Source of the DNA: Candidatus Heimdallarchaeum endolithica
GTDB lineage: Archaea > Asgardarchaeota > Heimdallarchaeia > Heimdallarchaeales > Heimdallarchaeaceae
Direction: 5' to 3'
DNA: 64,000 nt
NCBI GenBank assembly: GCA_021513715.1
Contig: CP084167.1
Location: 3,008,001-3,072,000, forward strand
The position numbers and the translations under genes were made by a program. Position 1 is the stretch's first letter, and each line of letters starts with the position of its first letter. The notes under the pieces are model-generated. The model ran no database searches. It saw only the letters and a program-made list of their open reading frames with translations, and was not told where the DNA came from. Positions 6,284-24,874 of the stretch are shown here, piece after piece.

Positions 6284-9262
6284 TTATTCTTTTGAAGAAG
6301 AAGGAAGAAAAACCATTCCTTCTTTTCTTTTTGCATCTACTCTTACTATTAAAGGTACTTCTGTTTGAACATGGACAACATATTTTTTCTCTTCAACAAT
6401 TTTCTGTTCTCTTAACCACCCCCAATTTATGACATGTTTTTCCAGATTGTGCTTTATGTATAGGTAACCTAAATTGCCTGCAACGATAGAAGAGAAAAAG
6501 TGACTTCCTTGACTAAAATCTACACTGAAATCTGCTGTTGAAGCTTCGACAATAGCTATTGCTCCGTTAATATTGGTCCATTTGACAGGAATTCCTAGAA
6601 ATCTATCTGCCGTTCCCCATCGACCAAAACCAATTAAGATATAAGGTAAGTTTTTATCACTTAAAATAGCATTTAACTCATCTATTTCTTGAACAATCTC
6701 AAGTGTCTTTGTTTTATCAAAGGTTTCTGGTCTAACAAAAACGATATCATTGATGTCTTTTCTTATTAAGTTACCACTAACTGTGTTTGAGAAAAGAATA
6801 ATTTTATCTTTTTGTATCATAGAATAATCCTCAAATTCTAGTTCTTCTTGTAATAGAAAAGGTCGAATTTGAAGCATGTAGAATTGATCTCTTTCTTCTT
6901 TATTAGATCTGAAATTACCTGCAAATTCTATTTCAATTGAAGAACCCATAGCTTTTTCTCCAATTTCCATCATTGTATTAACTATCTCAGCTAGAGGAAA
7001 TATCTCTAGTTTTAATTGTTGATTAAAAGTTATAACAGGAGAACCTTTTTGATAATATCCTGTCCTTAATGTTTCAGAATTAAAGTCATATGTATCTGCT
7101 ATCTTAGTCAGTGTTCCATCTTTTATTGCATGAGTTAAATTATACTTTTTCACATAAGGGTCTGTAGTTTCAATATCAAATTCATCTTTTTCAATATCTA
7201 TAGCATAGAATGAGTTTTGACTTTGGTTAAGAAGCTCTTTAATATCTGCATAATAGTTCACTTTTGGATATTTGGGACTGAATCGGATTGATTGTCCTCC
7301 TTCTACAACATATCTTCCTAAACCCAAAGCCACACTAGCTATCCTATCCTCTGATTTCATATAATGACCTATAGGATAAAAATTGAAGGAGGACGCTGTT
7401 CCACTAAAATTGGGATAGTATCTCCCATCGTATCGTTTTCCCACGACCTCTTGTATAACAACAGCCATTTTAGACTGCTCTACAGTCATATCAATTAACT
7501 CTGCATATGTTCTTGCAAGTTTCAAAAAGGGTGACGCGTAGACTAATTTTATTGCTGTACATAGTTGATTTAAACGTTTTTTATTATCTGGATTATTATT
7601 AGGTAACATATATGTTTCAAAAATTCCAGCAAAAGGCTGATAAGCTGAATCTTCCAACAAGCTTGAAGAACGAATAGCTAAAGGCTTTTTAAGGTCTTTA
7701 AGTAAGAACTGTAAATCCTCTCTCAAACTAGAAGATAATTTAGCTTTAACGAACTTTTCTTTTATTTGTTTATCTGTAACATTTGGTTTGTGAGCAAATT
7801 CATATAAATTGTTATCAGACATGAATTTATCAAATTCATCAGTTCCTATGACAATTGTTTTAGGTATAGTAATCGTCACATCAGGAAACAAATCTTGAAG
7901 TTTAAAAGAATGGATTAAAAACATTAAAAATGCTACCCCTCTCCCCTTTCCTCCTAATGATCCTGGACGTAATCTTAAAAAAAGTATTTCTGGGTGATAA
8001 CTATCCTTGTTAAAATCATTTACTATTCCTTTAGTTTTCTCAACAACTATTCTTCGAAAATTATCCAATAAAAATTTTCTTAATTCTTCGTTAGTGAACT
8101 CTGAAACCTTTCTTGGTTTAAGCGCTTCTGCTACGTCAAATTCTCCTCTTGCGTTTAACCATCCTGAAAAATGGTCATTTTTTCCGTGATATTTTAACGA
8201 TTCATATGGAATTACTTTTAGCTGTTCATAAAAATCAATAATGTCTTTTGCTTTTCCTAATTCTTTGCCTTTTTCATCGCGAAAAATAAAATCACCAAAA
8301 CCTACACGCTCTAGTAACCATTTGTTTAGAGCGCTTATTATTTCATGACTCCCTTTGTAAATGAAAAAACACGCTAATTCATCTGCGATCTTTTGATATT
8401 CCTTCTTTGAAGATTGTAAAATAACTGGAAGGTTTTTAGTTTCTTTCTTTATCATCTTTATAAAATTAATACCTGCGTTTTTGTCTAAAACACCATTTCT
8501 AGGAAATTCAACATCAGTAATTACTCCTAAAACATTATCCTTATACTTTGAAAAATACTCTACTGCTTCCTCATAAGTTTCTGCAAGTAATATTTTAGGC
8601 CGTATCCTCATTTTAAGTAGGTCAAGATAATCGTTTGAACCTTCTAGTATTAATCTATGAGTTTGTTTCATTATTTCTCCATAAAGTTCTGGAAGAAGTA
8701 ATGAGTAGTGACGTATAGAATCTTCAACGAAAATAAAAACTCTAACATTTGCTATTTTAATATCGTTGTCAATATTAAATTTATCTTCTAAATGTTTAAC
8801 AATTGCCACAAATAACTTTGAATCTCCATTCCAAACAAAAATACGGTCAACATATTTTCTTTTAGATTTTTCAGGTAAATATTTGATCTCTACAATACTA
8901 TTTAGAAGAAGGACAACAGGAATATTTTTAATATTTTTCACTTTTTCTCCAAAAGAAAAGGGATTAATATCTCCCACACGACTCATAGTTATTACTAAAT
9001 CAAAATCCTCTTTTTTTATTAATTCTAAAGCCTCTGAAGCTAAAGAAACTCTTGTTATTCTCGGGAGTGTTCTTAAATTGAGATTGCGAAATTCTTCATA
9101 AACTTGGTCTGATAATCTTCCGTCTTCTTCTAAGAGGAAACTATCATAAATGGAACTTACTATTAATATATTCTTCATTCTTATTTTCATTAATTCATGA
9201 AATACTTTGTACCTCGGTTTATATTCTGAAAATAACTGATTTGATCCTCTTATAAAATCCAA
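6284..9262 (-). CDS. Receiver-like domains fused to PEP/pyruvate-binding (PPDK_N ATP-grasp) domain
   Basis: GSLGGKGRG, PLAIRSSSLLEDS..FAG, MAVVIQEVVG, IEIEFA, LQIRP; VITDVEFP receiver-like; AGGAG SD before TTG at 9262 (ORF open to 9340). Confidence 0.85.
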   Translation of the reverse strand: MDFIRGSNQLFSEYKPRYKVFHELMKIRMKNILIVSSIYDSFLLEEDGRLSDQVYEEFRNLNLRTLPRITRVSLASEALELIKKEDFDLVITMSRVGDINPFSFGEKVKNIKNIPVVLLLNSIVEIKYLPEKSKRKYVDRIFVWNGDSKLFVAIVKHLEDKFNIDNDIKIANVRVFIFVEDSIRHYSLLLPELYGEIMKQTHRLILEGSNDYLDLLKMRIRPKILLAETYEEAVEYFSKYKDNVLGVITDVEFPRNGVLDKNAGINFIKMIKKETKNLPVILQSSKKEYQKIADELACFFIYKGSHEIISALNKWLLERVGFGDFIFRDEKGKELGKAKDIIDFYEQLKVIPYESLKYHGKNDHFSGWLNARGEFDVAEALKPRKVSEFTNEELRKFLLDNFRRIVVEKTKGIVNDFNKDSYHPEILFLRLRPGSLGGKGRGVAFLMFLIHSFKLQDLFPDVTITIPKTIVIGTDEFDKFMSDNNLYEFAHKPNVTDKQIKEKFVKAKLSSSLREDLQFLLKDLKKPLAIRSSSLLEDSAYQPFAGIFETYMLPNNNPDNKKRLNQLCTAIKLVYASPFLKLARTYAELIDMTVEQSKMAVVIQEVVGKRYDGRYYPNFSGTASSFNFYPIGHYMKSEDRIASVALGLGRYVVEGGQSIRFSPKYPKVNYYADIKELLNQSQNSFYAIDIEKDEFDIETTDPYVKKYNLTHAIKDGTLTKIADTYDFNSETLRTGYYQKGSPVITFNQQLKLEIFPLAEIVNTMMEIGEKAMGSSIEIEFAGNFRSNKEERDQFYMLQIRPFLLQEELEFEDYSMIQKDKIILFSNTVSGNLIRKDINDIVFVRPETFDKTKTLEIVQEIDELNAILSDKNLPYILIGFGRWGTADRFLGIPVKWTNINGAIAIVEASTADFSVDFSQGSHFFSSIVAGNLGYLYIKHNLEKHVINWGWLREQKIVEEKKYVVHVQTEVPLIVRVDAKRKEGMVFLPSSSKE

Positions 9263-9502
9263 CTTTTTCTCTCCTTTTGCTACTATTACATTATTTTGTC
9301 TTCTTCCTATTATTGTTTTCCTTGTGTTCTTAAAAATCACTGTTTAGCGCTTTTTAACTTTTGAATCAGAGATTCAAAAGACACGTTTTACTCTTTTTTT
9401 GCTTTTTTGATGATTTTAGTTGAAAATATCTATAAATTTGGGAGATAAATATATGGTTTCAAAGGAAAAAGTATTTAAATAAAGTATTAGACGAACTCAT
9501 AC

Positions 9503-9515: not shown

Positions 9516-9535
9516 TTATTTACAAGGTGAAAAAA

Positions 9536-9826
9536 ATGTCTGAAGGAGAAAATCAAGAAAGCGTAATTTTTATTGGCCGAAAATCGACTATTTCTTATGT
9601 GTTGGTAGCTGTTACCATACTAAATAAGAATGATACTTGCAATATTCAAGCACGTGGAAGACAAATTTCCAAGGCTGTTGATGTTGCAGAAATTACTCGA
9701 CGCAAATTCCTTGCTGATCAAGTCGTTGTAGACAATGTCACAATCTCATCAGAAGAATTGCCTTCTGATAATGGAGAAGGAACAAAAACAGTAAGTACAA
9801 TTGAAATTACTCTCAAAAAGAAATAG
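9536..9826 (+). CDS. albA: DNA/RNA-binding protein Alba
   Basis: IFIGRK..YVL, QARGRQISKAVDVAEI, VSTIEITL; AGGTGA SD. Confidence 0.95.
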   Translation: MSEGENQESVIFIGRKSTISYVLVAVTILNKNDTCNIQARGRQISKAVDVAEITRRKFLADQVVVDNVTISSEELPSDNGEGTKTVSTIEITLKKK

Positions 9827-9986
9827 TCTGTGAGAGTAGTTAAACGCAGAGATTTTTCCAATAATTTTTCTTTTTGTTTTATTTTGAAACTATTTTTCTG
9901 CTTATTTCCGTTTAATAGCATAGTTTGTGAAAATTCTGCGCTATTTCAAAATATTATTATATCTAAACTTTAAACAGTTATAGACA

Positions 9987-11771
9987 ATGAATATCCGAAC
10001 TAAAAGTGATTTTATTTTTGTGATTGTTGGTATATTTGTGTTCTCAGCTCTAAGAGTTGTTTATAGTCTTTTTGTTGTAAATTGGAGTAGTTATGTAAAA
10101 GGAGCAGCTACACCTTCATTTTTATTTTGGATAGATTTTATTTCCTATTTAGTGATTTTTCTGATATTTCTATTATATGGGTGGTATGTTCGAAGGAAAT
10201 TTGTTAAAAATAATCAAGATAAAGGAGACAATATTTTACATTACATAATAAAAATGTTTATTATAATTTATATTCCAATTTTTCTTATATCTTTAGTTGT
10301 TTTTCTTATAAAACAAATTAATCTAAAGGTGTATTATTCTACTTTAATATTCAATGAAACTGTTCAAATTGCATTTTTTAGCACATTAATAGGTACTCTT
10401 CTTTACAATCAAATTGAGCAGTTTTTTTCAAAAGTTTTTAAATCCTTTAACTATCAAAAGTACCCCTCTAAAGAGCTATCTCTTATTGAGCAATCAATGG
10501 TAAAAACAATAACACGTTATTGGAGTTATGGGCTATGCATAGTTCTCTTCTTTATATTTTTAGCAAATCTCTTGGTTCTGATTATTTATCCAAGTATCCC
10601 CGCAAATTATGATTCAGATATTAAACTAATTATTGCATACCCGAATTTTTCTTTTAGCTTCAATAACGAAACAGGTTTTCATCAAGAGTTTTTTACTTAT
10701 GTCAACCTTGATTATACCAAATTCCTTAACTGGAAATTGATACAATCTTTGCTTTGTATCTTATTAATTTTAGTGATGGTTTTACTTTACTATCTTCCCA
10801 TGCAAAAAAAAGAAACAGAACAAGTAAATGAGATTGAAAAGCACGAAGTAGAGGAAATTGAAGACCAAAAGCAAATTCAAAAAATAGAAAAAGAAACTCC
10901 TAAACAAAAAGAAAAAGTAAATAGTGATACAACTCTAGATCAAGAAATTGATTCTATTGTTTTTCTTAACGAAGAAGATGATTATTATACTCCGAAAGGT
11001 TTTATTAAAAAAAGAAATAGGCGATTTGAGCACTTGTTATCCCATATGAAAAAAAGTGACATTATTCCCGTAATGAATCTTGCAGCTTTGAATTTGGGTC
11101 TAGCTATGGTTTTTATTTATTTCCTTCAACTATTTGCTCCTTCAGCTTCTTTTTCAAGTTATTCATTGTCAGATTTTCTCTATATTCAACTTTCATCTTT
11201 ATATTGGGCGGGACTATTTGAAGAAATTTCTTTTAGATTCTTGATTATGGGTGTTCCCCTATTTTTTATTCATGGGGTTTATTATTTAGTAGTAAAACTT
11301 TTGCGATCTTCTAAATCAAAAAGAGAAGATAAAACAAAAGTAAAAGAAGAAAATAAGAAAAAAAGAACTTTAGAGAATCCTTTTCTTTACTTAACAGGTC
11401 GTTGGAAAAAGTTAAAAGTTATTGATTTTATTTTCTTAATAATTTCTTCTTTCTTCTTTGGATATGTTCATTACCAATTTGGAAGCTGGGCTGTTTGGAA
11501 AATTTTTCAAGCAGGGATCGCTGGAATTATTTTTGGGTATGCATACTATAAATTTGGTTTGCATGCTGCTATCTTTCTTCATACAGTAAATGATTTTGCA
11601 ATAGGATTAATGATTGTACCAAATTTAGGATTAATTATCCAAGGAGGATTTATAGTTTTAATGCTCATTTTAATGGGTGTAATGTATGCATTCTATGTTT
11701 TCTCATTATTTCTTAAGAAAACAATTAATTTAAACTTTAAAAAACTGAATAAGCAAAAAGAGGTAAACTAA
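9987..11771 (+). CDS. CPBP family (CAAX/Abi, Rce1-like) intramembrane protease with extended N-terminal TM region
   Basis: EExxxR (EEISFR), FxxxH (FGYVH), HxxxN/D (HTVND). Confidence 0.85.
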   Translation: MNIRTKSDFIFVIVGIFVFSALRVVYSLFVVNWSSYVKGAATPSFLFWIDFISYLVIFLIFLLYGWYVRRKFVKNNQDKGDNILHYIIKMFIIIYIPIFLISLVVFLIKQINLKVYYSTLIFNETVQIAFFSTLIGTLLYNQIEQFFSKVFKSFNYQKYPSKELSLIEQSMVKTITRYWSYGLCIVLFFIFLANLLVLIIYPSIPANYDSDIKLIIAYPNFSFSFNNETGFHQEFFTYVNLDYTKFLNWKLIQSLLCILLILVMVLLYYLPMQKKETEQVNEIEKHEVEEIEDQKQIQKIEKETPKQKEKVNSDTTLDQEIDSIVFLNEEDDYYTPKGFIKKRNRRFEHLLSHMKKSDIIPVMNLAALNLGLAMVFIYFLQLFAPSASFSSYSLSDFLYIQLSSLYWAGLFEEISFRFLIMGVPLFFIHGVYYLVVKLLRSSKSKREDKTKVKEENKKKRTLENPFLYLTGRWKKLKVIDFIFLIISSFFFGYVHYQFGSWAVWKIFQAGIAGIIFGYAYYKFGLHAAIFLHTVNDFAIGLMIVPNLGLIIQGGFIVLMLILMGVMYAFYVFSLFLKKTINLNFKKLNKQKEVN

Positions 11772-12358
11772 TGTCACTTGATAACAAACTATACTTTAAG
11801 GTTGTTTTAGCTGGGGAAGCAGGTGTAGGAAAAACAAGTCTTCGAAGAAGTTATCTTGGAGTGGGATTCCAAACACAGCATTTAAGCACTATAGGTGCAG
11901 ACTTTGCTAGTTACTCTACGAAGATAAATGAACAACGAGTGAATTTTCAGATTTGGGATTTAGCAGGTCAAGATATCTTTGAAAGTATGAGAAATTTATA
12001 TTATAAAGGGAGTTTGGGTGCATTAATGGTTTTTGATGTAACAGACATTTCTAGTTTAGATGCATTAAGTAACTGGATATCAGAATTAGAGAAGAATTCA
12101 GGAAGAGGAGTTGTTCCTTTTTCGATATTAGGAAACAAAATAGATTTGTTAGATAAGGAAGAACTTGAAAAAATAAGAAAAAAAGTAGATTTAATATTGA
12201 AAAAGTACAATAAAAAATTTGAAAGTAAAGGTTTTTCGATAAATTATTTTGAAACTTCTGCAAAAACTGGTCACAATGTTAAGATGGCTTTCAACAACCT
12301 TGGAGAAGCAATTTTTAATTATCTTGATTTCAGAAGAAAGAAGAGGGAAGAAAATTGA
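11771..12358 (+). CDS. Rab/Ras-like small GTPase
   Basis: G1 GEAGVGKTS, G2 STIGADF, G3 WDLAGQ, G4 NKID, G5 ETSAK. Confidence 0.95.
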   Translation: MSLDNKLYFKVVLAGEAGVGKTSLRRSYLGVGFQTQHLSTIGADFASYSTKINEQRVNFQIWDLAGQDIFESMRNLYYKGSLGALMVFDVTDISSLDALSNWISELEKNSGRGVVPFSILGNKIDLLDKEELEKIRKKVDLILKKYNKKFESKGFSINYFETSAKTGHNVKMAFNNLGEAIFNYLDFRRKKREEN

Positions 12359-14709
12359 AAAGCGTTGACATTGAACTGAAAGATTTACTAAAAACTGGAA
12401 AAAAAGAATCTATTGATATCAATAATTTAAAAAAACTGAAAAGTATAATCTTTTTTCTAAATGATGAAGATCGTGTAGTTAGACGTAATGCACAAGAGAT
12501 TCTTTTATCTGCGCCTATAATCCCAGTTAGCGAAATAGTTGATCTTTATCTTTCTGTGAATAGCGAATATGTTGCTGATTTTATACTTGAAAATTTAAAT
12601 ATCTTTTTGGTTGAGTTAGTAGACCGTTTTAACAGTAAAATAGATAGTATCCTTATTTCAGAGTTAATTAAAAAAATACCAGTTAAAGACTTGTTTGCTA
12701 CATTAGTTGAAATAGCTGAAATTACTCCTGTTTCAGCTAAAAAGGCAGAACTTATAATCAGAACATGTCACCCTTCTTTTTCAGAAAGTATGAATTCACT
12801 AATATCTTATGATTATATTGAAAATTTCAAGAAAGAAGTAAAAAAACTTCTCTCTATAAGACTTAAAGAGAATGATAAAAATATTACAACTCTAGTATTA
12901 AAAACAGTATGTTTCTTTCCTGAACTTCCTCCATTGATAGAGAAAGAGCTAATCGATATTATTAATCATTCAGATATAGAAGAGCACATAATTTATGCAA
13001 CTACAGCATTAATAAATGTTGATAATAAAAAGAACGCTCAAATTTTGGCTAATAGGCTTAAATATGGAAAAGATTCGGAAAAAGTAAAGTTAGCTATCAT
13101 TGAATCCCTTGGTAATTTAGGGAATCCAAAAATAGCTCCTATAATGATAGAGTTATTTGACGAGGGGGGACAAATAGCTTATTCTATATCTAAAAGCTTG
13201 GGGTCAATGGGTGTAGAAGTTTTGCCCTATTTAGTCCAAGCTCTAAAAGAGGACAAATATATTCCGAACATTGTAGAGGCTATGAAACGTATTGGAAGCG
13301 CAAGTTTTGAATATTTGATGACAAGTTTGGAAAAAGAACGGAATATACAAATTAGAAAAAATATTGCTCATTGTTTAACCTTGGTAATGCATGAACAATA
13401 TGGTTATGAAGGAACAATCAAACTTCTGACTAATGAACTAGCAGGAAAAAATCGGGAACTAGTAGATGCAGTAACTCAAGCATTAATAAATTTAGGTACT
13501 CCTTCTATAGAATATCTGATCGATGAACTAAATGATAAAGATCGAGAATTAAGGAAAAATGCAGTAAAGATACTTGAACATTTTGGAGAAGGAAATATTG
13601 AAATTGCTCTCGATGGACTACTTGAAACAGATGAAGATAGAGTAGGTACTTTAAGTATTATATTATACATTTATCATCCTGATGAAAGACTGAGAAAATT
13701 GGGTTATTCTTTTGCTATTCATAAAGGAAATCTAAGAGCAAAGAAAAATGATAATTTATTGATGATACTAACTGATGCACTGAATGAAATTGACCCCTAT
13801 ATTCGTATTCGTTCATGTGATATGCTTGAATACTTCAAAAGTAAAGCTATTCCTCATTTAACTAAACTTCTATCAGACCCCAATATTTTAGTTAAGAGAA
13901 AAGCAGCAGAAGCACTACGCACAATAAAAAGTAAAAGAGCATTGATTGCGTTGATGAACGCTGCAACAGATAAAGACCCTATAGTATCAGAAATATCGAC
14001 AAGGGCTTTGGGAGAGTTAGGAGACCCAGGAGTCGTAGATATTATTCTTGCAAACCTAAAGAGAAATAGTCAAACTATTTATGAAGCATCAGTTTACGCT
14101 CTCTCACAATTGGGTACGCCTATACTGAACAAAATAACAAAGGAATTGAGTAGCTCCAATAAGAAAGTCGTAGATGGTATAGTTGATGCAGTTTCAAAAA
14201 TAGGTGTAGTTGGATTAGAAATTCTGATAAAGAAATATTTAGAAGAAAATGGAAGAAGAGTCTCTCAAATTGAACGAATAATCGGAAAGATGGGCGAGAC
14301 AGCGATACCTGAAATATTAAAAATATATGAAAGGATTAATGATTCTCAAAAGAAAGAAAAGTTGTTGAAATTAAGAGCTAAAATTAAAGATACTTCAGTA
14401 GCGACAGAAATAGTTGAAAAGATTCAAAAACCATCAAGTAAAAAAATAGCAATTGAACTTATAAATTTAATAGGTGTTGAGTGTGCTCATAAGCTAGTTG
14501 ATGAACTGCTTAAATTAGAGCAAAATAAGGTTAAAAGAATTTTCACAAAGAATATAAAAATTGAACCAAAAATATTAGTTTCAATTATTAAGGAATTGAA
14601 ATTAAGAGAACAACAGCAATTGGCTTTGCATCTTATTAATCAAAACCAAAAAGCGTTAAAGAAATTTGTAAGTGAGAATCCAGAATTTGAAAGTTTGTTT
14701 GAAGGATAA
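12355..14709 (+). CDS. HEAT-repeat (alpha-solenoid) protein
   Basis: Repeated L.D.D..VR..A..AL..LG units (LSDPNILVKRKAAEAL, TDKDPIVSEISTRALGELG). Confidence 0.9.
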   Translation: MKSVDIELKDLLKTGKKESIDINNLKKLKSIIFFLNDEDRVVRRNAQEILLSAPIIPVSEIVDLYLSVNSEYVADFILENLNIFLVELVDRFNSKIDSILISELIKKIPVKDLFATLVEIAEITPVSAKKAELIIRTCHPSFSESMNSLISYDYIENFKKEVKKLLSIRLKENDKNITTLVLKTVCFFPELPPLIEKELIDIINHSDIEEHIIYATTALINVDNKKNAQILANRLKYGKDSEKVKLAIIESLGNLGNPKIAPIMIELFDEGGQIAYSISKSLGSMGVEVLPYLVQALKEDKYIPNIVEAMKRIGSASFEYLMTSLEKERNIQIRKNIAHCLTLVMHEQYGYEGTIKLLTNELAGKNRELVDAVTQALINLGTPSIEYLIDELNDKDRELRKNAVKILEHFGEGNIEIALDGLLETDEDRVGTLSIILYIYHPDERLRKLGYSFAIHKGNLRAKKNDNLLMILTDALNEIDPYIRIRSCDMLEYFKSKAIPHLTKLLSDPNILVKRKAAEALRTIKSKRALIALMNAATDKDPIVSEISTRALGELGDPGVVDIILANLKRNSQTIYEASVYALSQLGTPILNKITKELSSSNKKVVDGIVDAVSKIGVVGLEILIKKYLEENGRRVSQIERIIGKMGETAIPEILKIYERINDSQKKEKLLKLRAKIKDTSVATEIVEKIQKPSSKKIAIELINLIGVECAHKLVDELLKLEQNKVKRIFTKNIKIEPKILVSIIKELKLREQQQLALHLINQNQKALKKFVSENPEFESLFEG

Positions 14710-14710
14710 A

Positions 14711-15715
14711 CTAAAATTCTTTTTTTTCAATTTTTCCTTTTTGTATTTGTGGTATTAACTCTTTTATCAGTAAAGGAAGTAAGTTAAGTTCCATGTGAAA
14801 AGGAGAGTAGATCTCTAAAGTTTTTTCATTTAAATTAAAATAAGGTTTTTCAACTGTTTGTACAAGATAATGGTCTAAAATTTTGAAATCTTGAATGGTT
14901 GAAAAGAGTTTGGAAAAATTTTCAGTTAATTGTTGTAAACTATTCTCTTTTTCTGATTTTGAAGTAAGCTGGAAAAGGTTTAGATACCCTTCTGTCTCCA
15001 TGTTAATATATAATTTAGTTGTGTTGTCAATCAAATTTATTCTTGGAAATTTTTCTACTAAAGGTGTTTTAGCTGCTAGAACATTAATTAGTTTATTTCT
15101 CCCAGGAAAAATAGTATGATCTGTCAGTATCAAAAATTCTTTAAAACCGACCTTTTTACTTTTAAAGAGAAATTCCTTATTCTTTTGGTTGTAACTGACT
15201 TCTTCTCTCTTATATTCTATTAATTCTACCTTTAGTTTTTTTAGTTCATCTAAAATATAAGCTGTTAAACCTCCTAAATTATTTATTACAAGTGAGGAAT
15301 CAGAAATTAATCCCTTGTTATATTTCTCTGAATTTAATAAAGGGAGGGTTTGTTTAATCTCTTTTTGTTTTAAAATACTACAATCCATATTAGAATTTTG
15401 CAATTTATTATACATCTCTTCAGTTTCACGTAGAGAACTGTTTAGAATTAATAGTGAAGCTTTTGAGATATCAAAAGATTTTGTAGTATAAAATAAATCA
15501 TTATAAAATTCTAAAGAGGTAGTCAATATTTGTTCAATTTTTTCAGGTCGGTATGAAAATATTGGATAAACAAAACTAGGGAGAAAAAGACTGTTGCGAA
15601 TAAGCTCTTCGTTGTAAAAATAAGATATATTTAGGTTTGAATTTGCATTTATTATTTCATAGGCTAAAATTAAGCTGGTGAGATTATTTCCAACGACAAC
15701 TATGTCTCTTTCCAT
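14711..15715 (-). CDS. Divergent FAD-dependent oxidoreductase (DAO-like) fold protein
   Basis: N-terminal Rossmann-like DIVVVGNNLTSLILAYEI lacking GxGxxG; EIKQTLPLL segment typical of DAO family. Confidence 0.5.
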   Translation of the reverse strand: MERDIVVVGNNLTSLILAYEIINANSNLNISYFYNEELIRNSLFLPSFVYPIFSYRPEKIEQILTTSLEFYNDLFYTTKSFDISKASLLILNSSLRETEEMYNKLQNSNMDCSILKQKEIKQTLPLLNSEKYNKGLISDSSLVINNLGGLTAYILDELKKLKVELIEYKREEVSYNQKNKEFLFKSKKVGFKEFLILTDHTIFPGRNKLINVLAAKTPLVEKFPRINLIDNTTKLYINMETEGYLNLFQLTSKSEKENSLQQLTENFSKLFSTIQDFKILDHYLVQTVEKPYFNLNEKTLEIYSPFHMELNLLPLLIKELIPQIQKGKIEKKEF

Positions 15716-17441: not shown

Positions 17442-18452
17442 ATGGAAGTAGGTGTGTTAATTTTTTTGCTACTAATTGCATTAGCAGTGTACATATCTCT
17501 AAGAGTTTATTCTACTAATAAGAAAAAGAGAAAAGTTTATCGTAAAAGATATCAACCTTATCAACCTTACAGACCTTATCAACCATCACACCTAGATTCT
17601 TCTCGAAGAGCAAGTTATCAAAGTGAACAATCTACTCCAACAACAAGGAGTTCTCCTACTTATCAACCTCAGACTAAACCGTCTTATACTCCCAGTTATT
17701 CCCCAAGAAGAACCCCTGTAGTAACAAATAATGCAGATGATTACTATCGTGCAGGAATGTATGATAGAGCAAAGGAAGAATATCTTAAGACAGGAAGAAT
17801 ATTTGGTGCAGCGAAATCTGTTGCCTCTAAAGGAAAAGAGTATGTAAAAGAAGCTTTAGAAATAATTAAACAATATGCTCCTGAAAGAGAAGAAGAAATG
17901 ATAAGAAATCTTTCAAGATACTTTTTTGATAGTGGAGAAGTAGAATTATCAGCACAGGTATTATATGATTATAACCTTATTGAAGAAGCTAAAGCAGTTT
18001 TAGCAACTATAGGAAAGAGTATAGACGATATAGTAGAACCTAAATCTGTAGAAATTAGCACATTCAGCAGTACTGAGCCCTTTATGTCTAGTACTGAAAC
18101 AGAAACTGAAACTATTATTTCCAGTTTTGCTAGTGATACTGAGCCAATAAGTGATGCAAGAGAAGAGTTAAGAGTATTGGCGAATGAAGAAGAAACAGAA
18201 CCAATTGAACCTTTTTCAAGCCAAGTTGAAGAAACAAAAAAAATAGAACCTCAAAAATTAAAGATAGCTACAGTAGATTTAGAAGAGAGATGTACTGTTT
18301 GTTTAGGGGAGATAAAGGCAGGAGAAAGTTTTGTTAGATGTCCTCATTGTGGAAAACCCTCGCATTATTCTCATTTAGTAGAATGGTTGAAAGTTAAAAC
18401 TCAATGTCCTAATTGTAGAAATAAACTGTCGTTGAATATGTTTAAAACATAA
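17442..18452 (+). CDS. Membrane-anchored RING-finger protein (putative E3 ligase)
   Basis: N-terminal TM helix plus basic stop-transfer; C-terminal CTVC..CPHC..H..H..W..CPNC. Confidence 0.8.
   Translation: MEVGVLIFLLLIALAVYISLRVYSTNKKKRKVYRKRYQPYQPYRPYQPSHLDSSRRASYQSEQSTPTTRSSPTYQPQTKPSYTPSYSPRRTPVVTNNADDYYRAGMYDRAKEEYLKTGRIFGAAKSVASKGKEYVKEALEIIKQYAPEREEEMIRNLSRYFFDSGEVELSAQVLYDYNLIEEAKAVLATIGKSIDDIVEPKSVEISTFSSTEPFMSSTETETETIISSFASDTEPISDAREELRVLANEEETEPIEPFSSQVEETKKIEPQKLKIATVDLEERCTVCLGEIKAGESFVRCPHCGKPSHYSHLVEWLKVKTQCPNCRNKLSLNMFKT
17550..17585 (+). repeat. 4 x 9-bp tandem repeat encoding YQP-YQP-YRP-YQP
   Basis: TATCAACCT TATCAACCT TACAGACCT TATCAACCA. Confidence 0.8.
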
Positions 18453-24334: not shown

Positions 24335-24874
24335 TTATTTTTCATTTAGTTTTTCCATTACTTGCTTAACTATTGTAACATAAACATCGTTTACTCCTGC
24401 TCCTAGTTTAGCAGAAGTTTCAAGAACTTGATAACCTTTGCTTTCCCACTCTTTTTTAGCTTGCTCATAAGAAACAGCTCTCTGTTCTTCTAGGTCTGTT
24501 TTATTTCCAACGATAATGATTGGAATATCTGGGACCTTATTTTCTATTTCTGAAATCCAGTAAGAAATATTTTCATATGATTCTTTTCTAGTAATATCAT
24601 AAACAACTACTGCACCGTGAGCTCCAGTATAATATCTTTTTCTTAATGAAGCTAGACGTTCTTGTCCTACTGTATCAAATAGTACCATTTTTATTTTTGT
24701 ATCTTCATCGATATCAACTTCCTTACTATAAAAGTCTACACCCAATGTAGGGAGGTAATTGACAGAAAATTTGTTTTTTGTATATCTTACTGCGATACTT
24801 GTTTTTCCAACACTGTAGTCTCCTACGTTAATTATCTTTACAATAAAGGTGACATTTTTATTTGAACCTAACAT
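24335..24874 (-). CDS. Rab-like small GTPase
   Basis: GDYSVGKTS, PTLGVDF, DTVGQE, YYTGAHG, GNKTDL, ETSAK. Confidence 0.95.
   Translation of the reverse strand: MLGSNKNVTFIVKIINVGDYSVGKTSIAVRYTKNKFSVNYLPTLGVDFYSKEVDIDEDTKIKMVLFDTVGQERLASLRKRYYTGAHGAVVVYDITRKESYENISYWISEIENKVPDIPIIIVGNKTDLEEQRAVSYEQAKKEWESKGYQVLETSAKLGAGVNDVYVTIVKQVMEKLNEK

Follow-up and report, generated by a model that had tools for sequence, protein, structure and literature searches.

In Ran and karyopherin-beta, Arl2 and TBCD, Arf1 and the adaptins, and MglA and MglB, a common design is found, in which a Ras-superfamily switch works with a dedicated partner. Asgard archaea encode dozens of Ras-superfamily GTPases, almost none of which has a known partner. 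In MK-D1, GTPase genes generally lie outside operons with regulators and the matching of partners is hard (Tran et al. 2024, PMC10933270). The CPBP/Abi/Rce1-like proteases (PF02517) form another described group, which includes MmRce1 (4cad), SpdC (6u0o), MroQ and the myxosortase (PMC11980579). This report addresses a locus in which members of these two groups are encoded side by side. It belongs to a stretch of 64,000 nucleotides (hereafter the window; positions 3,008,001 to 3,072,000 of contig CP084167.1) from Candidatus Heimdallarchaeum endolithica and comprises three genes, encoding a membrane protein with a CPBP domain (P0001), a Rab-like small GTPase (P0002) and a HEAT alpha-solenoid (P0003). 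Two circular genomes, those of Ca. H. endolithica and Ca. H. aukensis, both of the family Heimdallarchaeaceae, have been described (Wu et al. 2022, PMC8813620). The genome examined here is a single contig of 3.33 Mb with ~30% GC, and all coordinates below are those of the window.

The CPBP, GTPase and HEAT genes form a real operon that is kept across one archaeal family, and this three-gene set is an invention specific to the Heimdallarchaeaceae. The original prediction, made from the letters of the window, had proposed a candidate ancestral module consisting of a membrane protease, a GTPase switch and a solenoid effector; taken as a whole, this interpretation is partly supported. Literature searches on CPBP proteins in Asgard archaea, on HEAT repeats and GTPases in Asgard archaea, and on CPBP proteins and small GTPases retrieved no description of such an operon, nor any report of a link joining a small GTPase to an intramembrane protease. 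As this Rab-like GTPase is tied genetically, throughout a family, to two specific proteins, it offers a concrete pair or triple for experiments.

An operon kept across the Heimdallarchaeaceae

The order CPBP, GTPase, HEAT on one strand was found in 18 of the 18 loci fetched with P0001 that had enough flanking sequence (two further loci, cut by contig ends, were left out), as well as in 30 loci for which the HEAT protein served as the query and in 20 named contigs of Heimdallarchaeota metagenome-assembled genomes (MAGs). It spans five genera of the family, at protein identities that go down to ~30% for the CPBP protein, ~55% for the GTPase and ~35% for the HEAT protein.

The overlaps announced in the original prediction are exact, both in length and in position. 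Indeed, the first two genes overlap by 1 nucleotide (nt) within TAATG at 11769-11773, where TAA and ATG share base 11771, and the last two by 4 nt within TTGA at 12355-12358, where TTG and TGA share bases 12356-12357. Across the loci, the CPBP-to-GTPase junction ranges from -1 to +48 nt, and most loci have -4 nt at the GTPase-to-HEAT junction, the others 0 to +2 nt or, in one locus, +24 nt. Two observations speak for TTG as the start of the HEAT gene: alignments with orthologues begin at residue 7-11, and most related loci share the 4-nt overlap.

Both internal genes are preceded by motifs resembling a Shine-Dalgarno (SD) sequence. Nearly all loci have GAGGRGG or AGAGGG 7-10 nt 5' of the HEAT start, within the codons of the GTPase tail wherever the two genes overlap or abut, and GAGGT, (A)GTGA or GGAGG occupies the same place before the GTPase start in orthologous loci. 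The 3' end of the 16S rRNA (...GGATCACCTCCT) is complementary to the GAGGT that precedes the GTPase ATG and, in nearly all loci, to the SD-like motifs of both internal genes. In contrast to both internal genes, gene 1 has no SD-like motif before it. A leaderless first gene followed by SD-led internal genes is the usual pattern in archaea, and a TATA-like stretch upstream of gene 1 is a candidate archaeal promoter, in a genome of 30% GC, from which a leaderless or short-leader transcript might start. On its 5' side, the operon is bounded by an Alba gene (9527-9826) followed by a 160-nt A/T-rich spacer; on its 3' side, the stop codon of a convergent gene encoding 334 amino acids lies 1 nt from that of the HEAT gene.

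Orthologues of P0001 were found in 24 of the 24 Heimdallarchaeaceae genomes sampled, which cover the five genera (the match in genome G008 being only a weak generic CPBP protein), and 16 genomes from the three remaining families of the order gave a single weak match. Full-length HEAT orthologues occur in 29 of 30 genomes of the family and in none of 52 other genomes of the class; a profile search across Asgard genomes, with a cut-off of 1e-18, retrieved them from 27 of 28 genomes of the family and from none of 272 other genomes belonging to 29 other families. G008, which is 86% complete, is the sole genome of the family without a HEAT orthologue and is missing the CPBP and GTPase orthologues too, and the presence of the operon looks all-or-none within the family. 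Furthermore, only 29 relatives of P0001 were found in 5.8 billion protein clusters, all the named ones being labelled Heimdallarchaeaceae or Asgard, and the closest of all proteins, with 73% identity, comes from Ca. H. aukensis. The original prediction looked to synteny across Asgard archaea: the gene order holds throughout the genera of Heimdallarchaeaceae, and the set was not found in the other Asgard families searched.

The three proteins and the question of CaaX processing

P0001 shares all three motifs of the CPBP proteases, which are intact as originally predicted, and its multi-helix transmembrane (TM) fold may be compatible with theirs. Its C-terminal 220 residues match PF02517 (Rce1-like/CPBP) at 8.5e-10 with 39.2 bits, above the cut-off of 22.4 (a search of the genome gave 40.1 bits). 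When 26 family members, on average ~36% identical to P0001, are aligned, residues E412, E413, R417, F491, H495, H532 and N535 are invariant, and residue 536 is conservatively kept as D or N. P0001 is, however, very diverged from known CPBP proteases, since the whole protein has no Pfam match at E<=0.01 and even a profile of the family has no match among PDB sequences at E<=1. A Foldseek search of the PDB with the CPBP model returned nothing at E<=0.001 and listed MmRce1 only at rank 48 (E 6.7). Stand-alone relatives of the CPBP domain, sought at shorter lengths, were represented only by fragments from the same family, and PADLOC gave no membership of a defence system. P0001 also differs from known CPBP proteases by an operon shared with GTPase and HEAT genes, by a basic insertion loop of 36 residues between motifs 1 and 2 (residues 442-477), which includes 14 Lys or Arg and an invariant NPxxYLxGxWK sequence, and by a fused 270-residue domain with six TM helices, found nowhere else.

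The additional multi-TM region of ~350 residues noticed in the original prediction corresponds to ~345 residues, in which six TM helices are predicted, along with a small beta element and a linker that is charged and disordered. The AlphaFold2 (AF2) model of P0001, with a predicted local distance difference test (pLDDT) of 70, successively displays the six TM helices, the beta element (residues 214-241), the linker and a CPBP domain of six to seven helices. The linker has a pLDDT below 50 from residue 274 to residue 341 and is the least conserved region of the protein (58% identity to the H. aukensis orthologue); the 89-residue stretch 270-358 that separates the TM segments contains 17 Lys or Arg and 22 Asp or Glu. 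According to hydropathy and the positive-inside rule, this stretch, the loop 442-477 and the C-terminus are predicted to be cytoplasmic, and the topology would place the beta element, with its invariant N220-F-S sequon, outside the cell. The invariant residues of the N-terminal domain are W66, Q127, E144, P202, N220, Q233, W249 and Q253. A profile search with the N-terminal 272 residues against 1.84 billion representative proteins retrieved only 15 proteins below 1e-30, of which the full-length ones share the architecture of P0001 and the remainder are fragments, and an ESM Atlas search with the N-terminal 275 residues gave no usable match. Judging by sequence profiles, the N-terminal domain is an orphan, without relatives outside its own family among these representatives.

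P0002 matches the Ras family of Pfam (PF00071) at 8.5e-40. Among proteins of solved structure, Ypt51/Rab5, Rab8A and Rab7 are its closest relatives (~2e-29), and its top 60 PDB sequence matches are all members of the Rab/Ypt family. Like eukaryotic Rabs, it carries the full set of G1-G5 motifs, as stated in the original prediction, and the catalytic Gln. Among 15 orthologues, G1-G5, the catalytic Gln67, the switch I Thr40 and the triad F45/W62/Y77 are invariant, as are IGADF, WDxAGQ, YYKG, NKxD and SAK. We take IGADF and YYKG to be RabF-like motifs and F45/W62/Y77 to be the Rab-type hydrophobic triad. Unlike eukaryotic Rabs, P0002 lies in an operon with its presumed partners; relative to a canonical paralogue of the same window, it has an insert of ~9 residues between G4 and G5. 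This paralogue, a Rab-like GTPase of 179 amino acids encoded at 24335-24874 (- strand), matches PF00071 at 1.1e-51 and is devoid of the insert.

The C-terminus of P0002 also differs from that of eukaryotic Rabs. The tail, which reads RRKKREEN and has no C-terminal Cys, in agreement with the original prediction, comprises only ~10 residues in the family (F-R-R/K-K-x-R..., with R188 and R192 invariant). No Cys is present anywhere in P0002 or in the tails of the 15 orthologues, in which the Rab-type Cys prenylation motif located after a long hypervariable tail is absent; neither prenylation nor a GDI cycle would thus be expected. Part of the conservation of this polybasic tail reflects a constraint at the nucleotide level, because its codons double as the SD sequence of the HEAT gene. 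Indeed, across the family, the Arg/Gly/Lys codons of the tail encode GAGGRGG or AGAGGG (positions 12328-12354 of the window), and this dual coding makes the protein tail look more conserved than it would otherwise. The idea that the tail is purely a membrane anchor is weakened by this double use of its Arg/Gly codons. The tail may also have a role at the protein level, since in one locus (L048), where the SD sequence is intergenic, the tail is still basic. The basic tail is found only in GTPases of Heimdallarchaeaceae, the orthologues from families f3 and f4 being devoid of it.

P0003 matches HEAT_2 of Pfam over five stretches (6.5e-33) and shows no TM segment. Its AF2 model (pLDDT 88) is an all-helical solenoid of 48 helices, with which Foldseek found at least 500 matches to HEAT/ARM proteins at E<=0.001. 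These correspond to generic long solenoids (CAND1, SF3B1, karyopherins, mTOR and PP2A-A) with TM-scores of at most 0.29. The karyopherins, with E-values of ~1e-8 and TM-scores of 0.18-0.25, are mixed with the other proteins and fall below alphaRep, PP2A-A and SF3B1 after re-ranking with VIA. The best local fold matches are prokaryotic PBS-type HEAT repeats and, according to its model, P0003 is built of repeats of this type. Among the solenoids that the original prediction had in mind for a Foldseek comparison, the PBS-type proteins came out best, the karyopherins gave no clearly specific match and the adaptins were absent from the top 50 in both fold searches. The likeness of P0003 to the PBS-lyase HEAT-like proteins (CpcE/F and NblB, the source of the artificial alphaRep proteins) is limited to the repeat type. 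P0003 is found in a non-phototroph, paired with a GTPase; it has three times the length of these proteins and scores far below the NCBIfam equivalog cut-offs (67.7 versus 300 bits for NblB, 37.8 versus 220 for CpcF and 23 versus 330 for CpcE). With ~20 repeats, it would be long enough to wrap a GTPase, as in eukaryotic GTPase-solenoid pairs. However, it shows no clearly specific structural affinity with karyopherins or adaptins and, as the presumed partner of the GTPase, it is not a roadblock/longin protein like the partner in MglB-type systems.

It has been proposed that such an operon could be an ancestral module of an Rce1-type protease, a Ras-type GTPase and a solenoid effector linked to eukaryotic CaaX processing, or that the GTPase tail could be the substrate of the protease. 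The Pfam family of the protease domain does include Rce1, the GTPase is Rab-like in sequence and karyopherins do appear among the fold matches of the solenoid. This reading is nevertheless very improbable and is largely refuted by the genome itself and by the distribution of the set. In the source genome, which has 37 Ras-family matches and five PF02517 genes, a Cys box is absent from the last 15 residues of all 25 Ras-like GTPases checked (an internal Cys occurs in one). In addition, a search of this genome for the prenyltransferase alpha-subunit repeat (PPTA) found none; one Prenyltrans-like open reading frame located outside the window (G000:C1:1787204-1788001, 359 amino acids) belongs to the prenyltransferase/squalene-cyclase repeat family PF00432. 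An Rce1-Ras substrate relation is therefore not supported, in line with the remark of the original prediction that the GTPase, being devoid of a CAAX box, may regulate the protease rather than be its substrate. Against the ancestral module, a single family yielded the set among the 301 Asgard genomes searched, and the solenoid belongs with prokaryotic PBS-HEAT proteins; the shortness of the tail and the part of the overlapping SD sequence in its conservation also speak against a processed tail. Since the set is limited to Heimdallarchaeaceae and built from prokaryote-type parts, the operon tells nothing about how CaaX processing, or the coat and transport solenoids of eukaryotes, originated.

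History of the set and possible control of the protease

G025, the only genome from the sister family f2, has a gene encoding a GTPase 51% identical to P0002 that is followed, after 90 nt, by a gene encoding a HEAT protein of 826 amino acids. The central block of the latter is colinear with the conserved core of P0003 (independent E-value 2e-20), which is its only match in the source genome. As this pair is found in a sister-family genome that has no CPBP gene at the locus, the GTPase-HEAT pair is probably the older core of the operon. In a quick maximum-likelihood tree, the operon GTPases form one clade (SH-aLRT 100) with a long stem (0.6), nested among the best matches of f2, f3 and f4 (support 86-90) and including no other paralogue from the source genome; the operon GTPases thus appear to sit within an order-wide orthogroup. 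In the most economical history, an order-wide Rab-like orthologue would first have been joined by a HEAT protein, in the common ancestor of f1 and f2, and then, in Heimdallarchaeaceae, by a CPBP protein whose N-terminal domain was a new invention. As a separate observation, the gene for the Rab-like orthologue of f3 and f4 lies immediately 5' of, or overlaps, a gene encoding a TatD-like hydrolase (L053:5698-6492, L060:5181-5957, L054:6171-6923 and L057:362-1123), which makes another conserved pairing.

We consider the chances to be about even that this family-specific operon encodes one functional unit at the cytoplasmic membrane, in which a GTPase-HEAT switch controls an active CPBP protease. 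The Rab-like GTPase and the HEAT solenoid, as the older core, would be a stoichiometric pair of switch and partner, as suggested by the conserved 4-nt overlap and SD sequence and by the occurrence of the pair without CPBP in f2. The GTPase in its GTP state would bind the solenoid, and the complex would dock on the cytoplasmic surfaces of the 12-TM protein, i.e. the 89-residue linker, the NPxxYLxGxWK loop, which probably adjoins the helices of the active site, and the basic C-terminus. Once docked, the complex would control the access, position or activity of the glutamic intramembrane protease, whose substrate would be a membrane or membrane-proximal protein rather than a prenylated GTPase, and the extracellular beta element, with its invariant N-glycosylation sequon, may receive a signal from outside. 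The more precise proposal that the small GTPase and its dedicated HEAT partner directly gate the protease, making the operon a GTP-switched device for regulated intramembrane proteolysis in Heimdallarchaeia, is possible, albeit doubtful.

Several observations weigh against a protease under the control of the GTPase. In structure, the CPBP domain is best matched by SpdC, a scaffold that is not catalytic. The CPBP protein might be a non-proteolytic receptor or anchor, like Staphylococcus aureus SpdC with SagB, that tethers the GTPase-HEAT pair and relays a signal from the beta element. This is unlikely, since SpdC-type scaffolds have lost their catalytic residues; here, the invariance of E412, E413, R417, H495, H532 and N535 among the 26 aligned sequences, at such a low mean identity, argues for retained catalysis. 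Besides, in G025, the gene located 5' of the GTPase-HEAT pair encodes a soluble protein of 318 amino acids, and the protease may therefore be a late and looser addition. The orthology with f2 itself rests on one genome, in which the best match of the GTPase is almost tied (195 versus 191 bits).

Finally, the flanking Alba gene and the convergent 334-amino-acid gene, which are functionally unrelated, are also syntenic across the family, so that conservation of the neighbourhood alone is not a stringent test at such depth. These two genes, the f2 pair without CPBP and the variable spacing between the CPBP and GTPase genes would all fit neighbours that are co-transcribed or inherited together without mutual action, the GTPase-HEAT pair acting in cytoplasmic or membrane remodelling and the CPBP protein separately processing envelope proteins. 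Such independence is also improbable. Indeed, the CPBP gene is always directly 5' of the GTPase gene and on the same strand, an SD-like motif precedes the latter, most loci leave no room for a full promoter before it, the orphan N-terminal architecture is seen only together with the operon, and the family in which the GTPase has a basic tail and a long stem is also the one with a CPBP partner. Stronger arguments than synteny come from overlaps between genes of one strand, from the SD motifs, from a presence that is all-or-none and from the joint appearance of the orphan domain and basic tail.

If the protease proves to be gated by GTP, this would be the first Ras-superfamily switch controlling a CPBP protease. 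P0002 would also be among the few Asgard GTPases with identified partners, and this in Heimdallarchaeia, the class closest to eukaryotes.

Features of the locus and neighbouring genes

Table 1. Position of the genes, protein regions and candidate signals of the operon in the window
Feature	Position	Strand	Description
Gene 1 (P0001)	9987-11771	+	Membrane protein with CPBP protease domain, 594 amino acids
Gene 2 (P0002)	11771-12358	+	Rab-like small GTPase, 195 amino acids, no Cys, short basic tail
Gene 3 (P0003)	12355-14709	+	HEAT alpha-solenoid, 784 amino acids, ~20 repeats, TTG start
A/T-rich TATA-like stretch	9950-9963	+	24-37 nt 5' of the first ATG; read from sequence
Gene 1, residues 1-272	9987-10802	+	Orphan membrane domain: six predicted TM helices, beta element 214-241 (AF2 and hydropathy)
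Gene 1, residues 273-345	10803-11021	+	Predicted charged, disordered cytoplasmic linker (AF2 pLDDT and charge count)
Gene 1, residues 346-594 and stop	11022-11771	+	CPBP (Rce1-like/Abi) glutamic intramembrane protease domain
CPBP motif 1, EExxxR (E412-R417)	11220-11237	+
CPBP motif 2, FxxxH (F491-H495)	11457-11471	+
CPBP motif 3, HxxxN/D (H532-D536)	11580-11594	+
SD-like GAGGT	11760-11764	+	6 nt 5' of the GTPase ATG, within the end of gene 1
SD-like GAGGG	12343-12347	+	7 nt 5' of the HEAT TTG, in Arg/Lys/Glu codons of the GTPase tail

The Alba gene (+ strand) has the same direction as the operon in Heimdallarchaeum; in all other genera of the family, its orientation is divergent. The convergent gene located on the other side (14711-15715, - strand) encodes a protein with a degenerate Rossmann-like N-terminus (DIVVVGNNLTS) and without any Pfam or PADLOC match, which is kept across the family at only 23-29% identity.

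Another lineage of Heimdall archaea may harbour a second and looser CPBP-GTPase neighbourhood, at L096:3999-5921 (MAG HM7_B34) and also at L094 and L095. The 640-amino-acid protein of L096 combines TM helices with a double zinc ribbon and with a CPBP domain that is 31% identical to residues 306-542 of P0001 and includes the same basic insertion loop. A convergent gene encoding a Ras-like GTPase and two genes encoding Arf-like GTPases lie nearby, with a HycI protease gene between.

Elsewhere in the window, a protein of 1018 amino acids with a receiver-like domain and a PPDK_N ATP-binding domain is encoded at 6284-9340 (- strand), and a protein of 336 amino acids with a C-terminal RING finger is encoded at 17442-18452 (+ strand).

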